64,000 bases of DNA from an uncultured Verrucomicrobia subdivision 3 bacterium (GTDB lineage Bacteria; Verrucomicrobiota; Verrucomicrobiia; Limisphaerales; DASXHY01): the NCBI GenBank assembly GCA_937890005.1, contig CALBZA010000040.1, forward strand, positions 4,434 through 68,433, written 5' to 3'. A program made the position numbers and the translations under genes. The notes under the pieces were generated by a model. It worked only from the letters and a program-made list of their open reading frames with translations. It was not told where the DNA came from and searched no databases. Positions 11,889-57,710 of this stretch are shown one piece after another (within the stretch, counting starts at the first letter, position 1; the number at the start of each line of letters is the position of its first letter).

Positions 11889-12019
11889 CACCCCGCTTGA
11901 GCGGGGTGAAGCAAGGCCCCGTGAAAAGAGCCGTTCCGACGGCTTTTCCTCCAAACGTGCAAAGCTGTTAAAACAGCTGAGCCACTGCAACATCATTGCC
12001 ACCGCGCTGAAGCGCAGTG
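11889..12019. repeat. MITE-like multi-hairpin intergenic repeat, family A, copy 1
   Basis: CACCCCGCttgaGCGGGGTG (11889-11908), AGCCGTtccgACGGCT (11929-11944), palindrome AGCTGTTaaAACAGCT (11963-11978) and CACCGCGCtgaaGCGCAGTG (12000-12019). The same module order recurs at 28306-28432. Confidence 0.7.
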
Positions 12020-12119
12020 CCAAGGAGAGGTTCCCATTTCACCGGAACGAACGCGCTTTCTCCAAAGAGTTCCTTTCTCGGAAGTTTTCAACGGCACCGT
12101 CAGCAGGCATATTCGCCGG

Positions 12120-15100
12120 ATGCCAGTCGAACTCACAGAAGCGCTGCTCAGCAAGGCGGCGGGTTGGGACGTGATGAAGCGCGCGCGCGCGTACATCGAG
12201 CAGGGGCAGGTGCTCAGCTCGTTCTGGGAAGCGCCGCTGTTGCGTGGTGTGGTGCAGAGTGAAGTCTCGTTCCGGGCGTCGATGGTGATCAAGAGCGACA
12301 TCGACATCGAAAACCTCTGCACGTGCCGCGATGCGCGGGAATGGGGGAAAATCTGTGCCCACAGCGTGGCGGTCGGACTGCATTGGATTCAGGCACAGAA
12401 TGGTCCGGCGAAGGAACAGCCGGAACCGAAATCCGTTGGACAAAAGAGCGCTGCCGCGCCGGCGACGCGCAAAGTTTCATCGCTGCGACGCGAAGCCTCC
12501 CGAGAATCTGCCGAGTTGTTTCTCATCCTGCCGCCGAACGTGGATCAGGCCCTCGCCCGCGGCAAAGTGATGCTCGTTTTGGAAGCGAAGTGGGCGGGCG
12601 GACGGGTTCCCTTGAACGCGCTTCCGAAACACAAATCTTACGCGTTCGGAGAACAGGACTCGGCGATCATCGATTTCCTGGAGACACTTTCCAACGGCGA
12701 AACACCCGCGATCGTTCAGCTCGAAGCCACGCAATTCGCGACGCTGCTGACTCGACTTGTGGGGCATCCCAATCTGTCGCTCGGCAAATCGACTGAGGTG
12801 GAAGTCACAACCGAGCCGTTCGCTTTTCCCATCAAGGCCACTCTGGAGAGCAACGGGGAAATTGTTGTCGCGCCGAAAGGCAAAGCCGCCTTCGTTCCCG
12901 TCGGCGACTGGGTCTGGAGCAACAATCGCTTTCAGCTGTTTCAAATGCCGGAGTGGATGCGGGGAATCGTCCGCGGACCCGTGCGTGTTGCGCGCGCGCA
13001 GGTGCCGCAGTTTCTCAGTCAACAATGGCCGCAGCTGCTGTCGGCAGGCGCGGAGGCCAGCTTCAAGCTGGAAGACTTCACGCTGGAACCGCAGGCGCCG
13101 GAGTTCCTGCTCGAATTGAAAGGCGGTCTCGCTCAGCTCTCGGCATTGCTTCAGTGCCGATATGGTTCGCGGATCATGACGGTCGGCGTCACGACCGGGG
13201 ACGAAAGTGTGTGGCTGCCCGATCCTGAATCACCGACGCGTTATTCGACACGGGATGTCGCTGCCGAGCGCGCGGCGTTGGGACGATTGCAACGACACGG
13301 TTTTTCTGCACCAGACGGACAGGGGAAAATGCAATTGCTGGGACAGAATGCGGTGTTGAACTTCTTCGCCCGCGAATTTCCGAAGCTCGAACGCGAATGG
13401 AAGGTCACGCTGGAGGAGCGCCTTGACCGCAGCACGAAGCAGAACATCGAGCGAATCGAACCGCGTTTTGAGGTCACGTCGTCGGGTGTTCAATGGTTCG
13501 ATCTGGGCGTGGTGTTTGAGTCGTCGGGTGGCGAAAAGTTTTCACAGGCCGAGATTCAACGATTGCTGCTTTCGGGACAGAGTCATATGCGGTTGAAGAA
13601 TGGTCGCGTGGCGGTGATCGACACCGGCGCGGTGGAGGAACTGCAGGAGGTGTTGCTGGATTGCGCGCCGCAGCAGCATGCAAACGGGTATCGAATCAAC
13701 AACGCTCAGGCCGGTTTTCTTGAATCGACGCTGAAGCAGCATGCGGGATGGAAGTTTCAGGCACCGGCGCAATGGCGCGAGCGGGCGGCGAAGCAGAGCG
13801 GCGATGCAAAACTGGAATGTCCGCCACTGGGTGCGTTGGAGAATGTGCTGCGACCGTATCAGAAGCATGGCGTGGCGTGGCTGCGATTTCTTCGGGAGAA
13901 CGGTTTTGGCGGAATTCTTGCCGATGAAATGGGCCTGGGCAAAACGTTGCAAGCCCTCGCATTCCTTTGCTCTGTAAGCAATCGCCAATCGCCAATCGCC
14001 AATCGCCAATCAACTCCCCCCAATCTCCAATCAACATTCGACAATCCGCATTCCGCAATCCGCATTCCCCACCTGATCGTCTGTCCCACCAGTCTTGTGT
14101 TCAACTGGCTGGCCGAGGCGGCGAAGTTCACGCCGGAACTGAAGGTGCTCGCGCTGCATGGACCGGATCGACATCGCCACTTCGACCAGATCCCGCAGCA
14201 CGACATTGTCATAACGAGTTACGCTTTGATCCGTCGGGACGCGGAGCGATATCGCGGGTTTGAGTTCGACACGGTGGTGCTCGATGAGGCTCAGCACATC
14301 AAGAACCGGCAGACGCAGAATGCGCAAGCAGTGAAAGCGGTGCGTTCGAAGCATCGGCTGGTTCTGACTGGAACGCCGCTGGAAAATTCCGTGCTCGATC
14401 TCTGGTCGATCTTCGATTTCCTCATGCCCGGTTATTTGGGAACTGCGGCGGACTTCCGCGAGCGGTACGAACAGCCGATCACGCGCGACAAGGACGTGAA
14501 CGCCCAGGCACGACTGGCGCGGCGGCTTCGTCCGTTCATGTTGCGGCGATTGAAGAAGGATGTCGTCGCCGATCTTCCTGCAAAACTCGAACAGGTTTCA
14601 TTCTGCGAACTGACATCCGACCAACGCGCGGTGTATCAGCAGCTGTTGGAATCGACGCGCAATGAAGTTCTCGCGCACGCCGGAGAGAACACCGGCAGAA
14701 CCCGCATGCTGGCGTTGAACGCGCTGCTCCGCTTGCGACAGGTCTGCTGCGATCTTCGTCTGCTGCAATTGGACAAGGTGAATCCTGCCACCGCCTCCGG
14801 AAAGCTCGACCTGTTCAGCGAATTGCTGGAGGAAGTCATCGACGGCGGCCACCGCGTGCTGGTGTTCAGCCAGTTCGTCAGCATGCTGGCCTTGCTCAAG
14901 GAACGGCTGAAGGAGGAGAAAATCGAGTTCTGTTATCTCGATGGATCGACAACCGACCGGCGCGCCGTGGTGGAACGATTTCAGAATTCCTCCATTCCCG
15001 TCTTTCTCATCAGTCTCAAAGCCGGCGGCGTCGGACTCAACCTCACCGGTGCGGACACGGTCATGCACTTCGATCCGTGGTGGAACCCGGCGGTGGAGGA

Positions 15101-15296
15101 TCAGGCGACAGATCGCGCCCATCGAATCGGTCAGACGCGTGTGGTGACCAGCTACAAGCTGATCGCGCGCGACACGGTCGAGGAAAAGATTCTCACATTG
15201 CAGAACCGCAAGCGTGAGATCATCAAGGCGACCCTGTCCGAGGACGAATTCACGTCCGCGTTGAGCTGGGAGGAGATCCAGGAGCTGCTGATGTGA
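12120..15296 (+). CDS. SNF2-family DEAD/DEAH helicase with N-terminal SWIM zinc finger
   Basis: SWIM motif CTCRDAREWGKICAHSVAV. Helicase motifs LADEMGLGKT, LDEAQHIKN, LTGTPLENS, SLKAGGVGLNLTGADTV and QATDRAHRIGQ. Confidence 0.9.
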   Translation: MPVELTEALLSKAAGWDVMKRARAYIEQGQVLSSFWEAPLLRGVVQSEVSFRASMVIKSDIDIENLCTCRDAREWGKICAHSVAVGLHWIQAQNGPAKEQPEPKSVGQKSAAAPATRKVSSLRREASRESAELFLILPPNVDQALARGKVMLVLEAKWAGGRVPLNALPKHKSYAFGEQDSAIIDFLETLSNGETPAIVQLEATQFATLLTRLVGHPNLSLGKSTEVEVTTEPFAFPIKATLESNGEIVVAPKGKAAFVPVGDWVWSNNRFQLFQMPEWMRGIVRGPVRVARAQVPQFLSQQWPQLLSAGAEASFKLEDFTLEPQAPEFLLELKGGLAQLSALLQCRYGSRIMTVGVTTGDESVWLPDPESPTRYSTRDVAAERAALGRLQRHGFSAPDGQGKMQLLGQNAVLNFFAREFPKLEREWKVTLEERLDRSTKQNIERIEPRFEVTSSGVQWFDLGVVFESSGGEKFSQAEIQRLLLSGQSHMRLKNGRVAVIDTGAVEELQEVLLDCAPQQHANGYRINNAQAGFLESTLKQHAGWKFQAPAQWRERAAKQSGDAKLECPPLGALENVLRPYQKHGVAWLRFLRENGFGGILADEMGLGKTLQALAFLCSVSNRQSPIANRQSTPPNLQSTFDNPHSAIRIPHLIVCPTSLVFNWLAEAAKFTPELKVLALHGPDRHRHFDQIPQHDIVITSYALIRRDAERYRGFEFDTVVLDEAQHIKNRQTQNAQAVKAVRSKHRLVLTGTPLENSVLDLWSIFDFLMPGYLGTAADFRERYEQPITRDKDVNAQARLARRLRPFMLRRLKKDVVADLPAKLEQVSFCELTSDQRAVYQQLLESTRNEVLAHAGENTGRTRMLALNALLRLRQVCCDLRLLQLDKVNPATASGKLDLFSELLEEVIDGGHRVLVFSQFVSMLALLKERLKEEKIEFCYLDGSTTDRRAVVERFQNSSIPVFLISLKAGGVGLNLTGADTVMHFDPWWNPAVEDQATDRAHRIGQTRVVTSYKLIARDTVEEKILTLQNRKREIIKATLSEDEFTSALSWEEIQELLM
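13979..14069 (+). repeat. heptanucleotide tandem array, 13 x CAATCNN, in-frame within the SNF2 CDS
   Basis: caatcgc x4, then caatcaa ctccccc caatctc caatcaa cattcga caatccg cattccg caatccg cattccc. The 7-nt phase is kept over 91 nt. Confidence 0.9.
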
Positions 15297-25053: not shown

Positions 25054-27663
25054 TCAACGCCATTCGTGCTTCGGATACCGACGCTGCAGCTCAGATTTGA
25101 TCTTCGGATAATGCTCGCGCCAGAAGTTGGAGAGATCCTGAGTGACCTGAACCGGCTTCATTCCGGGAGTCAAAATGTGAACGAGCACCGGCACGCGGCC
25201 CATCGCGATCTTCGGCGTTTGTGTCACATCGTAAAGCTCCTGAATGCGCATCGCGATGTGCGGAGGATTGCCGGGTTCGTAGGTGATTTTTGGAGTGCGT
25301 CCGTTTGGAAGCGAAAGGCGTTCCGGCGCATGTTTGTCGAGAAGTTCGCGCTGAGCCTGCGACAGCCACGATTTCACGACCGGTTTGACGTCCTTGTCCT
25401 TGATGTCCTTGTAGCCAATCGCGCCGTGACAAAGTTGTTCAATCAACGTCTTCCGATCGGCATCGGTAATTGGAGGCAGTTCAAACTCCGGACACCACTT
25501 GCTCAACAGGTTCAATCGGAGAATCCATTGTTCGACCGTGTGATCCCATTCCTTGAGCGTCAGGCGCTCCGCGATGACTTCCTCGGCGAGCAATCGCGCC
25601 GCGGCATCGGCGGGCGGCGGTTCGATGCGTTTTGCCGAGAGGGCGAGTCCGCGGAAGCGTGAAAGTTCCGCGGCGACGACGCGTTTCTGCGTCGCATCGA
25701 ACATCACGCGCAGGTCTCGTTCGATGTCATCGGGAAAGAGTTCGTGCAGCCATTCCGGTTGAATGGCGGTGGCCAGCGAAAGGATGGTATTCACTTCCTT
25801 GTCCTTGCCTTCGACTTCACGAACTTCTGCCGCGACAAAAAGCTGGCTGTGTTGAACGGTGCTTTCGCGGGCCAGCACGCCGCGACGGCCGTGAACGAGT
25901 TCGCATCGAAGCGTTCCCTGATCGAGCCGGTGTGCCACACGGTCGGAGAATCCAATCAACACGCATTTCTGCAAGGCCTCGTCCTTCACTTCGCGCGGCT
26001 GGACGTCGAGCCCTTCGCGTTCGGCGATGCGTAGGAAATGGTCGAGCAGGGGACCGACCTGTCGTGCAGTGACGGCGTGAATGCCAAGCTTGCGGCAGGC
26101 ATCCAGGCGAAACTGATTCTTCGCCGCAAACGTCCACGCGCGCATCAGAATCCAGAAATCCGAGGAAGCCTTTTCGCCGAGCAAATCTTCGCGCAACTGA
26201 TTCGTTGCCTTGTCCACGCCGCGCAACAGGAGATCGCGTCCCTGCGTGAGTGCTGCGACCAATGCGGCCTGATAAACACAGCCGTATTCCTGTGCCGCCA
26301 GCAACATGCGCGCGTAACGCGGGTGGACCGGAAACGCGAGCATCTTTCGACCAACGGGAGTGATCTGCAACGTTTGTGGTGCAGGTTTCAGCGCGCCCAA
26401 ATCGGCCAGCAATTCTTCCGCATGCGCGAGGCTTTGTTCGTCGGGCGGTTCAAGCCAGCGGAACTTGCGCAAATCTTCAATGCCCGCGGCCTTCAACGTA
26501 AGAACCACTTCGGCCAGGTCGAGCCGCTTGATCTCGGGCAGTTCCTGTGCGGCGCGATGCGAATGTTCCTCACGCGACCAGAGCCGCATGCAAACGCCCG
26601 GCGCAGTGCGGCCCGCGCGGCCGGCGCGTTGATCGGCTGAGGACTGGCTGATCTTTTCGACGAGCAGCGTATTGATGCCGCGATAGGCATCGTATCGCGG
26701 AATGCGCGCGAGCCCGGAATCGATCACGAGCCGGACGCCGTCAATCGTGAGCGACGTTTCCGCGACATTTGTGGAAACGACAACTTTCGGCTGACGATAG
26801 CGCGCGACGGCTGCGTCCTGGTCCTTTGGCGACAGTTCGCCGTGCAATGGGAGCAGAATAAAACCGCGCGATTCGTCCGTGTGCCGAATGGCTTCAATCG
26901 TTTGAAAAATCTCAAATCCGCCCGGCATGAACACGAGCACGTCGCCGGTTCCACCGGATCGAACGTATCGGCTGAACGCATCCGCCGCCTGATCCCAGAT
27001 CGGTCGCCTGTCGGTGTAACTCGGTTCGGATGCGTAACGGATCTCGACCGGAAAGGTGCGTCCGGCGGAGGTCAGGACGGCGCAGGGATGACGGGTGATT
27101 GCGGATTGCGGATTGTGGATTGCGGATTTCTCCCGCTGACGGGTTTGGGAGAAGTAGTCGGCGAGCTGGTCGGCGTCCAGAGTCGCGGACATCACAGCGA
27201 GTTTCAGGTCGGGCCGTTGTGATTCCTGGACGTCGAGGGCGCGGGCGAGCGTGATGTCTCCGTAAAGATGGCGTTCATGAAACTCGTCGAACAGCAGCGC
27301 GGTGACGCCTTTGAGCGAAGGATCGTCAATCATCTGCCGCAACAGGACGCCTTCGGTGACAAAGCGAATCTTCGTGTCGCGCGACGTGACGTTTTCGAAA
27401 CGGATTTGATAGCCGACTTCTTTGCCGAGCTGGACGCCAAGTTCTTCCGCGACGCGTGTGGCGAGCAATCGTGCGGCGAGCCGGCGCGGTTGGAGAATGA
27501 CGACCTGTCCGTTCTCAAGCAGTCCGGACTGTAAAAGCATTTGCGGAACCTGCGTGGTTTTGCCGGAGCCGGTTGGTGCGGAGAGAATGAGGCGGTTGCC
27601 CGACCGCAGCGATTCGATGATCTGCGGCTGGATTTCCCAAATGGGAAGCGAGGTATCAGGCAC
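25054..27663 (-). CDS. hrpB: ATP-dependent RNA helicase HrpB
   Basis: APTGSGKTTQ, DEFHER, SATL and QRAGRAGR motifs, with a long HrpB-type C-terminal region. It is 869 aa. Confidence 0.9.
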   Translation of the reverse strand: MPDTSLPIWEIQPQIIESLRSGNRLILSAPTGSGKTTQVPQMLLQSGLLENGQVVILQPRRLAARLLATRVAEELGVQLGKEVGYQIRFENVTSRDTKIRFVTEGVLLRQMIDDPSLKGVTALLFDEFHERHLYGDITLARALDVQESQRPDLKLAVMSATLDADQLADYFSQTRQREKSAIHNPQSAITRHPCAVLTSAGRTFPVEIRYASEPSYTDRRPIWDQAADAFSRYVRSGGTGDVLVFMPGGFEIFQTIEAIRHTDESRGFILLPLHGELSPKDQDAAVARYRQPKVVVSTNVAETSLTIDGVRLVIDSGLARIPRYDAYRGINTLLVEKISQSSADQRAGRAGRTAPGVCMRLWSREEHSHRAAQELPEIKRLDLAEVVLTLKAAGIEDLRKFRWLEPPDEQSLAHAEELLADLGALKPAPQTLQITPVGRKMLAFPVHPRYARMLLAAQEYGCVYQAALVAALTQGRDLLLRGVDKATNQLREDLLGEKASSDFWILMRAWTFAAKNQFRLDACRKLGIHAVTARQVGPLLDHFLRIAEREGLDVQPREVKDEALQKCVLIGFSDRVAHRLDQGTLRCELVHGRRGVLARESTVQHSQLFVAAEVREVEGKDKEVNTILSLATAIQPEWLHELFPDDIERDLRVMFDATQKRVVAAELSRFRGLALSAKRIEPPPADAAARLLAEEVIAERLTLKEWDHTVEQWILRLNLLSKWCPEFELPPITDADRKTLIEQLCHGAIGYKDIKDKDVKPVVKSWLSQAQRELLDKHAPERLSLPNGRTPKITYEPGNPPHIAMRIQELYDVTQTPKIAMGRVPVLVHILTPGMKPVQVTQDLSNFWREHYPKIKSELQRRYPKHEWR
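27097..27131 (-). repeat. heptanucleotide array (about 5 x CAATCCG on the coding strand), in-frame within hrpB
   Basis: The + strand reads gattgcg gattgcg gattgtg gattgcg gatttct. It is translated on the minus strand as EKSAIHNPQSAITRH. Confidence 0.85.
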
Positions 27664-38096: not shown

Positions 38097-38117
38097 GATT
38101 GGCGATTGGCGATTGGA
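38097..38117 (-). repeat. heptanucleotide array (3 x CAATCGC on the minus strand), intergenic
   Basis: The + strand reads gattggc gattggc gattgga, the reverse complement of the SNF2 unit. It lies 57-77 nt upstream of the DUF6580 start. Confidence 0.8.
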
Positions 38118-48847: not shown

Positions 48848-48867
48848 CAATCCAATCCAATCCAATC
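48848..48867. repeat. pentanucleotide tandem repeat, 4 x CAATC (GATTG on the gene strand)
   Basis: caatc caatc caatc caatc, a perfect repeat, ends 2 nt upstream of the ATG at 48845 on the minus strand. Confidence 0.9.
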
Positions 48868-48986: not shown

Positions 48987-49060
48987 TGGCTGTCCGACAT
49001 GGATTCGAACCATGACAAAAGCCTCCAAAGGGCCTTGTGCTACCATTACACCATCGGACA
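48987..49060 (-). tRNA. tRNA-Gln (anticodon UUG), CCA encoded
   Basis: Hand-folded on the minus strand. Acceptor stem UGUCCGA/UCGGACA. D arm GUGU..GCAC. Anticodon stem AGGCC/GGCUU with loop CU-UUG-GA. T arm CAUGG-UUCGAAU-CCAUG. Discriminator G plus CCA. It is 74 nt. Confidence 0.9.
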
Positions 49061-53927: not shown

Positions 53928-54042
53928 AACGGTGACCGTTGACGAACCGAACGACGCAACACTAGCAGCGTAAAAAGCGAAGTCGAGATTTCTGGTTCAG
54001 TTTCTTTGCAACGGCCTGCGTTAAGCAGAGAAACTGATCTGT

Positions 54043-54138
54043 CACAGAAGAAACGAAGAGAACGAAGTGGTGTTTTCAGAAGTTGACCCGGTTGGTAAGT
54101 CGCCTCTCTCTTCTTCGTTCCCTTCGTTTCCTTCTGTG
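54043..54138. repeat. long-stem hairpin repeat, family B, copy 2
   Basis: CACAGAAGAAACGAAGAGAACGAAG (54043-54067) pairs with CTTCTTCGTTCCCTTCGTTTCCTTCTGTG (54110-54138). It lies 100 nt upstream of moxR. Confidence 0.75.
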
Positions 54139-54237
54139 GTGAATCTGCTTTCCGGAGTCAGTTCATGCGGCATTTACCCGAATGTGGGTTGTTCCCACGC
54201 TTGAGTCTGTTCGGGGCACTCCCTAGATTCTCACCCG

Positions 54238-57611: not shown

Positions 57612-57639
57612 ATTTATGATTTATGATGTTTGATTTATG
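57612..57639. repeat. heptanucleotide array (4 x ATTTATG-like), intergenic
   Basis: atttatg atttatg atgtttg atttatg begins 9 nt after the GH35 stop. An inverted partial copy, tcataaatc, lies at 57699-57707, just before the DUF58 ATG. Confidence 0.8.
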
Positions 57640-57710
57640 ATCTGGATGGTTGAAAACCCACGATGGCGATGTGTTCAAATCATCCATTGTAGATCATAGT
57701 CATAAATCCC

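Follow-up and report, generated by a model that had tools for sequence, protein, structure and literature searches.

How does a tandem repeat whose seven-nucleotide unit is not a codon multiple come to run, in frame, through the catalytic core of a conserved enzyme? The question is raised by a 64,000-nucleotide stretch of contig CALBZA010000040.1 from an uncultured Limisphaerales Verrucomicrobium (hereafter the window), in which 13 consecutive heptamers are translated as part of an SNF2-family ATPase. The tract is probably, though not securely, a tolerated repeat passenger that undergoes concerted evolution under reading-frame constraint, and not a working part of the helicase. The following features of the locus, in window coordinates, are needed for the argument.

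12120..15296, + strand: gene for the SNF2-family ATPase that hosts the array, a 1058-amino-acid (aa) open reading frame (ORF) recognized by its Pfam domains and by 120 orthologs at 72-87% identity
13917..13946, + strand: codons of helicase motif I (LADEMGLGKT), from the translation; the columns are invariant in the ortholog alignment
13979..14011, + strand: perfect sub-array of 4.7 CAATCGC units, 33 nucleotides (nt), at 100% match in Tandem Repeats Finder (TRF)
14007..14041, + strand: degenerate middle units CAATCAA, CTCCCCC, CAATCTC, CAATCAA and CATTCGA, delimited by unit cutting, with the register kept
14042..14069, + strand: right sub-array of four units (CAATCCG, CATTCCG or CATTCCC), homologous to the right arm of an inverted pair in orthologs
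14073..14096, + strand: codons of the motif Ia strand (LIVCPTSL), from the translation and alignments

When cut into heptamers, positions 13979-14069 of the + strand resolve into 13 head-to-tail units that hold a single register throughout 91 nt: CAATCGC four times, then CAATCAA, CTCCCCC, CAATCTC, CAATCAA, CATTCGA, CAATCCG, CATTCCG, CAATCCG and CATTCCC, with 12 of the 13 starting CA[AT]TC. TRF reports period 7 at 13979-14011 (4.7 copies, 100% match, score 66), an additional period of 21 across 13979-14046, and period 7 again at 14045-14068. In the window the word CAATCNNCAATC turns up 10 times where shuffles predict 0.43, and none of 100 shuffles reaches that count. Translated in frame as ..SNRQSPIANRQSTPPNLQSTFDNPHSAIRIPH.. 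between LADEMGLGKT and LIVCPTSL, the array starts at codon 620 of 1058 (58% into the ORF), in a protein with a full-length SNF2-rel_dom (residues 580-880, 1.1e-76), Helicase_C and SNF2_assoc. Sequence, TRF and translation thus confirm what an earlier note on this DNA had described: 13 in-register heptamers, 12 of them CA[AT]TC, in frame past motif I of a 1058-aa SNF2 protein, which is intact. The same note had pointed out that such units are free of stop codons in all six frames. This holds for CAATCGC and CAATCCG, but it is nothing special, since 50% of possible heptamers share the property, and we dropped it as a distinguishing feature; the minus strand of the 91-nt tract has two stops in one frame. 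Independent assemblies contain the array at the orthologous place, which rules out chance and assembly artifact.

The segment that the array encodes is an insertion confined to one order. At 80 orthologous SNF2 loci taken from species genomes, the linker that joins motif I to motif Ia measures 14-22 aa in Chthoniobacterales, Kiritimatiellia, Lentisphaerae and Opitutia, and lengths of 25-77 aa are confined to Limisphaerales; among the 120 close orthologs the linker ranges from 18 to 65 aa. Aligned to solved structures, the window protein meets a gap precisely where the tract lies, past the motif I helix and ahead of the motif Ia strand: opposite the window's 30 residues there are about seven in the Sulfolobus SNF2 core (1z63), and ISWI (5jxr) has a 22-residue gap facing nrqspianrqstppnlqstfdn. 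These gaps, together with the short linkers of outgroups in the Planctomycetes-Verrucomicrobia-Chlamydiae (PVC) group, bear out the suggestion that some 22-23 extra residues are lineage-specific, and the sequence comparison shows a linker that was ancestrally short (14-22 aa) and acquired its insertion within Limisphaerales. The gene itself is, judged by the same kind of comparison, a conserved single-copy ortholog across PVC. An AlphaFold2 model built from 46 close orthologs predicts a coil at residues 624-647 between a helix (608-622) and a strand (651-655), although the model is poor, with a mean predicted local distance difference test (pLDDT) score of 58. A common prokaryotic repeat would sit where lobe 1 of the SNF2 ATPase has a permissive loop, with the helix behind motif I on one side and the strand of motif Ia on the other. 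One obstacle to homolog searches is that a 90%-identity protein collection files the window SNF2 protein (12120-15293) under a 55-aa representative with which it shares no sequence; this misfiling, which looks like a clustering artifact, hides the protein.

In many orthologs the same site holds a more elaborate structure, which, like the unrelated palindromic families found there in other lineages, had escaped the earlier note. In about 50 of the 120 the linker is 38 aa long and follows the pattern LR[SN]AECG[VM]RN....IPHSALRTPHL, and these sites were counted as an inverted pair of four-unit heptamer arrays on the strength of the DNA of six, which shows the pair. In those six, four units of GCGGATT, GCGGAAT, GCCGATT or GCGAATT form the left arm and four of CAATCCG, CATTCCG, AAATCCG or CCCTCCG the right, across a spacer of about 25 nt. 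The predicted folds of the inverted pairs range from -23 to -55 kcal/mol, one reaching -55.3 kcal/mol with a z score of -9. The two arms are often one position per unit apart, and their complementarity has decayed in two orthologs (L085 and L007), which argues against a requirement for the hairpin. Selection on an RNA-level hairpin was rejected as well: transversions dominate the mismatches between arms (17 of 22), and G-U wobbles are not enriched.

What these arrays display instead is concerted evolution. Across six aligned linkers, units within an array are 0.89 (left arm) and 0.85 (right arm) identical, whereas units at the same position in different species are 0.75 and 0.66 identical, the very values found for units at different positions (permutation test, p < 2e-4). 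In one lineage a change from TGCGGAT to TGCCGAT is present in all four units, implying that the arrays have been repeatedly homogenized. Units are thus lineage-specific while register and four-unit length stay unchanged. Turnover of this kind could proceed by replication slippage, unequal exchange or gene conversion, and purifying selection on the helicase would allow only frame-preserving outcomes to survive.

Could the encoded low-complexity peptide itself be selected, for instance because it serves the helicase as a loop for flexibility or interaction, with the DNA periodicity as a by-product? The insert is kept in frame and measures 38 aa in many lineages, and the low-confidence coil predicted between helix and strand would suit such a role. 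However, divergence of the peptide outpaces that of the flanking core about sixfold (54% versus 92% identity in pairs, with length still 38 aa), homogenization works on 7-nt DNA units that are read in all three frames, and many orthologs and all outgroups do without the insert. Furthermore, its place can be taken by repeat families of unrelated kinds: other orthologs carry, at this codon position, long palindromes of the SRREEA...LLTSAAT, PAVEPG...GKMPPSTAGKDACRY and GHPLP..GEGRGEG types, one of which folds at -109 kcal/mol, and nested combinations are present. Selection on the peptide is therefore very improbable. The succession of unrelated and nested palindromes at one site identifies the SNF2 linker as a sink for hairpin-type repeat DNA. 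At least three such additional palindromic families (SRREEAHS..QSLLTSAATK, PAVEPGVPPG..GGKMPPSTAGKDACRY and GHPLP..RGEGRGEG) occur in frame at this loop and at that of a second helicase considered below; carriers include Limisphaerales P0015, P0027, P0044, P0124 and P0160, and locus L003 at 11927-12109.

The window copy departs from the palindromic arrangement. As a single strand its tract is predicted to be unstructured (-7 kcal/mol, z +0.75) and, unlike in the orthologs, it contains no palindrome. At its right end, CAATCCG, CATTCCG and CATTCCC match the orthologs' right arm, in a position and with a unit type common to L081-L086, and the remainder of the tract keeps the unit type, orientation and register of that arm. 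The closest relative, L081 (87% aa identity), also has two direct arrays, of which the left one is degenerate, CCAATCGCCAACCGCCAACCGCCAATCG, and a spacer that is 9 nt longer and unrelated to the middle units of the window; the four perfect CAATCGC units and the middle units that keep the register are thus recent changes in the window lineage. In the window lineage the right-arm array may have spread leftwards over the spacer and left arm, yielding a 13-unit direct array and destroying the hairpin, and the first four units may later have been re-homogenized to CAATCGC. As the gene remains intact in the window, L085 and L007 after loss of the structure, the hairpin is dispensable there.

A recently homogenized run of identical units also invites the idea of a contingency locus, in which strand slippage, by adding or removing one CAATCGC, would turn the SNF2 helicase off and on reversibly; the earlier note had pointed out that a change of one unit would cause a frameshift. 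The 33-nt perfect tandem is a slippage substrate with a unit that is not a codon multiple, as in simple sequence repeat (SSR) contingency loci such as the 7-bp repeats of Haemophilus hmw promoters, where a short tandem unit that is not a multiple of three likewise lies in or near a gene, and some slippage is needed to explain concerted evolution. In contrast with those loci, the perfect tract of the window is short, the other units are degenerate, and the array lies mid-gene in a housekeeping-type gene with no copy-number polymorphism observed. Known phase-variable tracts are usually much longer than 4.7 perfect units. The array starts 58% into the ORF, far from the 5' end, and the host is a conserved single-copy ortholog across PVC. 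Twenty-two near-identical ortholog pairs (insert 99.4% identical) show no change in insert length, and array copy number is the same in contigs from IMG/VR that are 94-98% identical overall. At 98.4% identity, one array is unchanged between contigs while another intergenic region has a differently organized array, indicating replacement. A flank-anchored metagenome scan (left flank plus two units) for strain variants recovered no other copy, although frameshifted alleles would escape protein searches, and exact-protein look-ups of the window SNF2 protein and of the second helicase retrieved no contig. The switch is thus unsupported, and we regard it as scarcely credible; at most, the tolerated tract would be a local hotspot for frameshift mutation.

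The window itself contains further heptamer arrays.

27097..27128, - strand: in-frame array of 4.6 CAATCCG units on the coding strand, read ..EKSAIHNPQSAIT.., inside an HrpB-like helicase gene (25054..27663, - strand)
38097..38116, - strand: intergenic array of three CAATCGC units, about 60 nt upstream of a DUF6580 gene on the same strand
57612..57707, no strand assigned: intergenic inverted pair reported by TRF, four ATTTATG units plus a degenerate reverse complement, between two + strand ORFs

Related units recur at dispersed loci within 64 kb: CAATCGC both at 13979 and at 38097, CAATCCG both at 14042 and at 27097. The HrpB array occupies the loop after motif III. That site is 17 aa long in 61 of 120 orthologs, versus 38 aa in the window, with the remainder at 18-55 aa, and the longer sites include heptamer-coded inserts as well as the SRREEA/LLTSAAT and GEGRGEG families known from the SNF2 site. 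DNA alignment sets an empty site against one filled with a perfect (CGCAATC)x4. Other Verrucomicrobiota have in-frame arrays inside ThiC, domain I of PGM/PMM, PrpD and the linker of a radical-SAM/methyltransferase protein; the ThiC copies include an AECGMRN...IPHSPF hairpin of -47 kcal/mol. The recurrence of NPQSAIR-type peptides in PVC proteins, which the earlier note had mentioned, is real, extending over SNF2 and HrpB orthologs, metagenome loci, and ThiC, PGM and PrpD. The inverted pair at 57612-57707 has a predicted fold of -32.2 kcal/mol (z -2.6). An Rfam scan of the window returned a single match, a tRNA, and none for the arrays.

Two further repeats were noted in the window. A pentamer array at 48848-48867, (CAATC)x4 or, read on the minus strand, (GATTG)x4, stops 2 nt short of the likely ATG of a gene with a Yip1 domain, in the usual position of a ribosome-binding site; tRNA-Gln lies just downstream at 48987-49060 (- strand). 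Between divergent ORFs, 54040-54140 holds CTTCGTTCCCTTCGTTTC, with arms 94% complementary and 45 nt apart.

Beyond the window, period 7 stands out among periods that do not match codons. In 1.44 Mb of PVC loci, 84 arrays have period 7, versus 35, 41 and 24 for periods 8, 10 and 11, and in 637 kb of IMG/VR loci, which were selected for holding one such array, the counts are 272 versus 45, 35 and 36. In both sets period 7 is enriched, as the earlier note's interpretation requires. Stretches with (CAATCCG)3 number 61 in IMG/VR and those with (CAATCGC)3 six. The 272 IMG/VR arrays have a length mode of 32-33 nt, matched by the 33- and 32-nt sub-arrays of the window, and 54 neighboring pairs comprise 26 inverted and three direct. 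In 18 of the 26 inverted pairs, the arms differ by exactly one position per unit. Some contigs among loci L207-L273 reach about 430 period-7 arrays per Mb, each contig with many different units, typically at 4.6 units per array. Heptamer hairpins lie between co-directional genes on a phage-like contig, and soil metagenome contigs have perfect intergenic inverted pairs of -75 and -106 kcal/mol, together with arrays that adjoin start codons on their upstream side.

Arrays also lie directly upstream of start codons, at 9935-9955 in L026 and 9923-9990 in L073 (SNF2 gene) and at 1031-1058 in L134, where the gene behind the array resembles holB (DNA polymerase III delta') in its sequence; these placements recall that reported for TAACTGA arrays in Beggiatoaceae. 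A degenerate metagenome scan for CAATCSS x3 plus CAATC left eight relevant loci after removal of terminal (CCCCAAT)n arrays. The latter make up most of L087-L166, inverted at both ends of contigs of 1-10 kb (for example L089, 7-48 and 2670-2718). They look like telomeres of gene-sized linear chromosomes, comparable to those of ciliate macronuclei, and are unrelated to the bacterial arrays, but they confound any heptamer scan.

A rival reading views the arrays as functional cis-elements, that is, protein binding sites or structure-forming DNA or RNA that depend on the 7-nt periodicity and a length of about 32 nt. Even within coding sequence, such elements could take part in transcription, in the processing or translation of RNA, or in DNA metabolism. 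The sharp length mode, the excess of inverted over direct neighbors, the hairpins between co-directional genes (on the phage-like contig) and at 57612-57707, the arrays just upstream of start codons (L026, L134 and window position 48848), the related units at unlinked loci of one genome and the constant 38-aa linker in 50 orthologs would all fit such elements. Regulatory roles have also been proposed for the heptamers of Geobacter, Beggiatoaceae and Xanthomonas/Nostoc (PMC2700814, PMC4679880, PMC4692102), although the heptamer families in these papers are without experimentally shown function. Units differ so widely among the loci of a single contig that one sequence-specific factor is unlikely. 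Moreover, the hairpin is gone in the window, L085 and L007 though the gene is intact, arm mismatches are mostly transversions and not G-U wobbles, and Rfam offers no match. We consider a cis-acting function unlikely, though worth keeping in view.

Across many prokaryotes, tandem heptamers are reported to outnumber all other short periodic repeats in intergenic regions, with "no clear clue" as to what they do (bioRxiv 10.1101/309039). In Geobacter metallireducens, 49 elements, each of four tandem GGACCGG units, lie in intergenic DNA as well as inside genes (PMC2700814), the GGGNATC arrays of Xanthomonas and Nostoc favor four units and include catalogued intragenic ones (PMC4692102), and in Beggiatoaceae TAACTGA arrays adjoin start codons (PMC4679880). 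Our searches found no literature on heptamer arrays in Verrucomicrobia or Planctomycetes. In view of these reports (bioRxiv 10.1101/309039, PMC2700814, PMC4692102), the arrays are not an undescribed PVC repeat system; the tract matches an established but functionally unexplained class, the tandem heptamers of prokaryotes. With the cyanobacterial short tandemly repeated repetitive (STRR) sequences and the Geobacter, Xanthomonas/Nostoc and Beggiatoaceae families it shares head-to-tail 7-nt units, typically four or five per array, and many dispersed loci with related units, intergenic and sometimes intragenic. It differs in having CAATCSS-type units without rich G-tracts, in its Limisphaerales host, and in the location of the window copy within the catalytic core of a conserved helicase, where it can be traced through an orthologous series.

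Two palindromic systems offer further parallels. Rickettsia palindromic elements (RPEs) are in-frame palindromic selfish DNA within genes that encode proteins (PMC10969869). Like them, the heptamer arrays are short in-frame inserts in unrelated conserved genes that add a peptide and leave the protein intact, probably, as with RPEs, where the fold tolerates them, and the SNF2 insert is palindromic in most orthologs; in-frame insertion absent from orthologs is seen in SNF2, HrpB, ThiC, PGM and PrpD. However, RPEs are about 100-150 bp long and have a conserved family consensus without an internal 7-nt period, whereas here each arm is a tandem of heptamers with a unit that varies by lineage, and the window copy is no longer palindromic. 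The second parallel is with REPINs, inverted doublets of repetitive extragenic palindromic (REP) sequences (PMC3116915), which are mobilized by RAYT transposases. These too are dispersed and mostly intergenic and combine two inverted short repeats with a short spacer into a hairpin, but they have a fixed REP sequence, whereas the arms here are tandem arrays and in-frame coding copies are common. By analogy with the RPEs, the tract is probably a passenger comparable to such selfish DNA, adding a disordered loop without benefit to the helicase.

Several observations weigh against regarding the tract as a tolerated passenger. The length mode is narrow (32-33 nt), inverted pairs recur and many lineages have long kept a linker of exactly 38 aa, all of which could reflect function or a trans-acting factor, and homogenization at constant length is a mechanism that we infer. 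Neighbor-joining ordering of the orthologs is star-like, so that a single ancient gain followed by losses is inseparable from repeated gains. Target-site duplications were sought at the array copies and none was convincing, the HrpB copy alone having a weak 8-nt repeat in its flanks; since no transposition footprint was found at these copies, the origin of the arrays is left between a mobile element and growth in place. Because the structural model is poor, the loop is judged to be surface-exposed from the gaps in the alignments and from what is generally known of RecA folds. Taken further, these regularities might be the work of an active, unit-sequence-independent process that holds arrays near 32 nt, or of a factor that reads the 7-nt periodicity, reaching into conserved enzyme cores; such a process or factor, which we think quite unlikely, would be at work in PVC bacteria as well as in IMG/VR contigs.

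Taken by itself the tract is unremarkable, a repeat tolerated by a loop of the protein. An orthologous series held in frame by a conserved gene is, in turn, a source of rare leverage on the evolution of heptamer arrays: units evolve in concert while register and length stay fixed, hairpins decay, and other repeat families take over the site. For Verrucomicrobiota, NPQSAIR- and AECGMRN-type peptides are to be read as translated repeat DNA and not as protein motifs. If an array-maintaining process does exist, the SNF2 linker series, in which site, register and four-unit arms are constant and the unit is lineage-specific, would be its natural record, and the origin of the unexplained "prime-number periodicity" of bacterial genomes could become directly testable.

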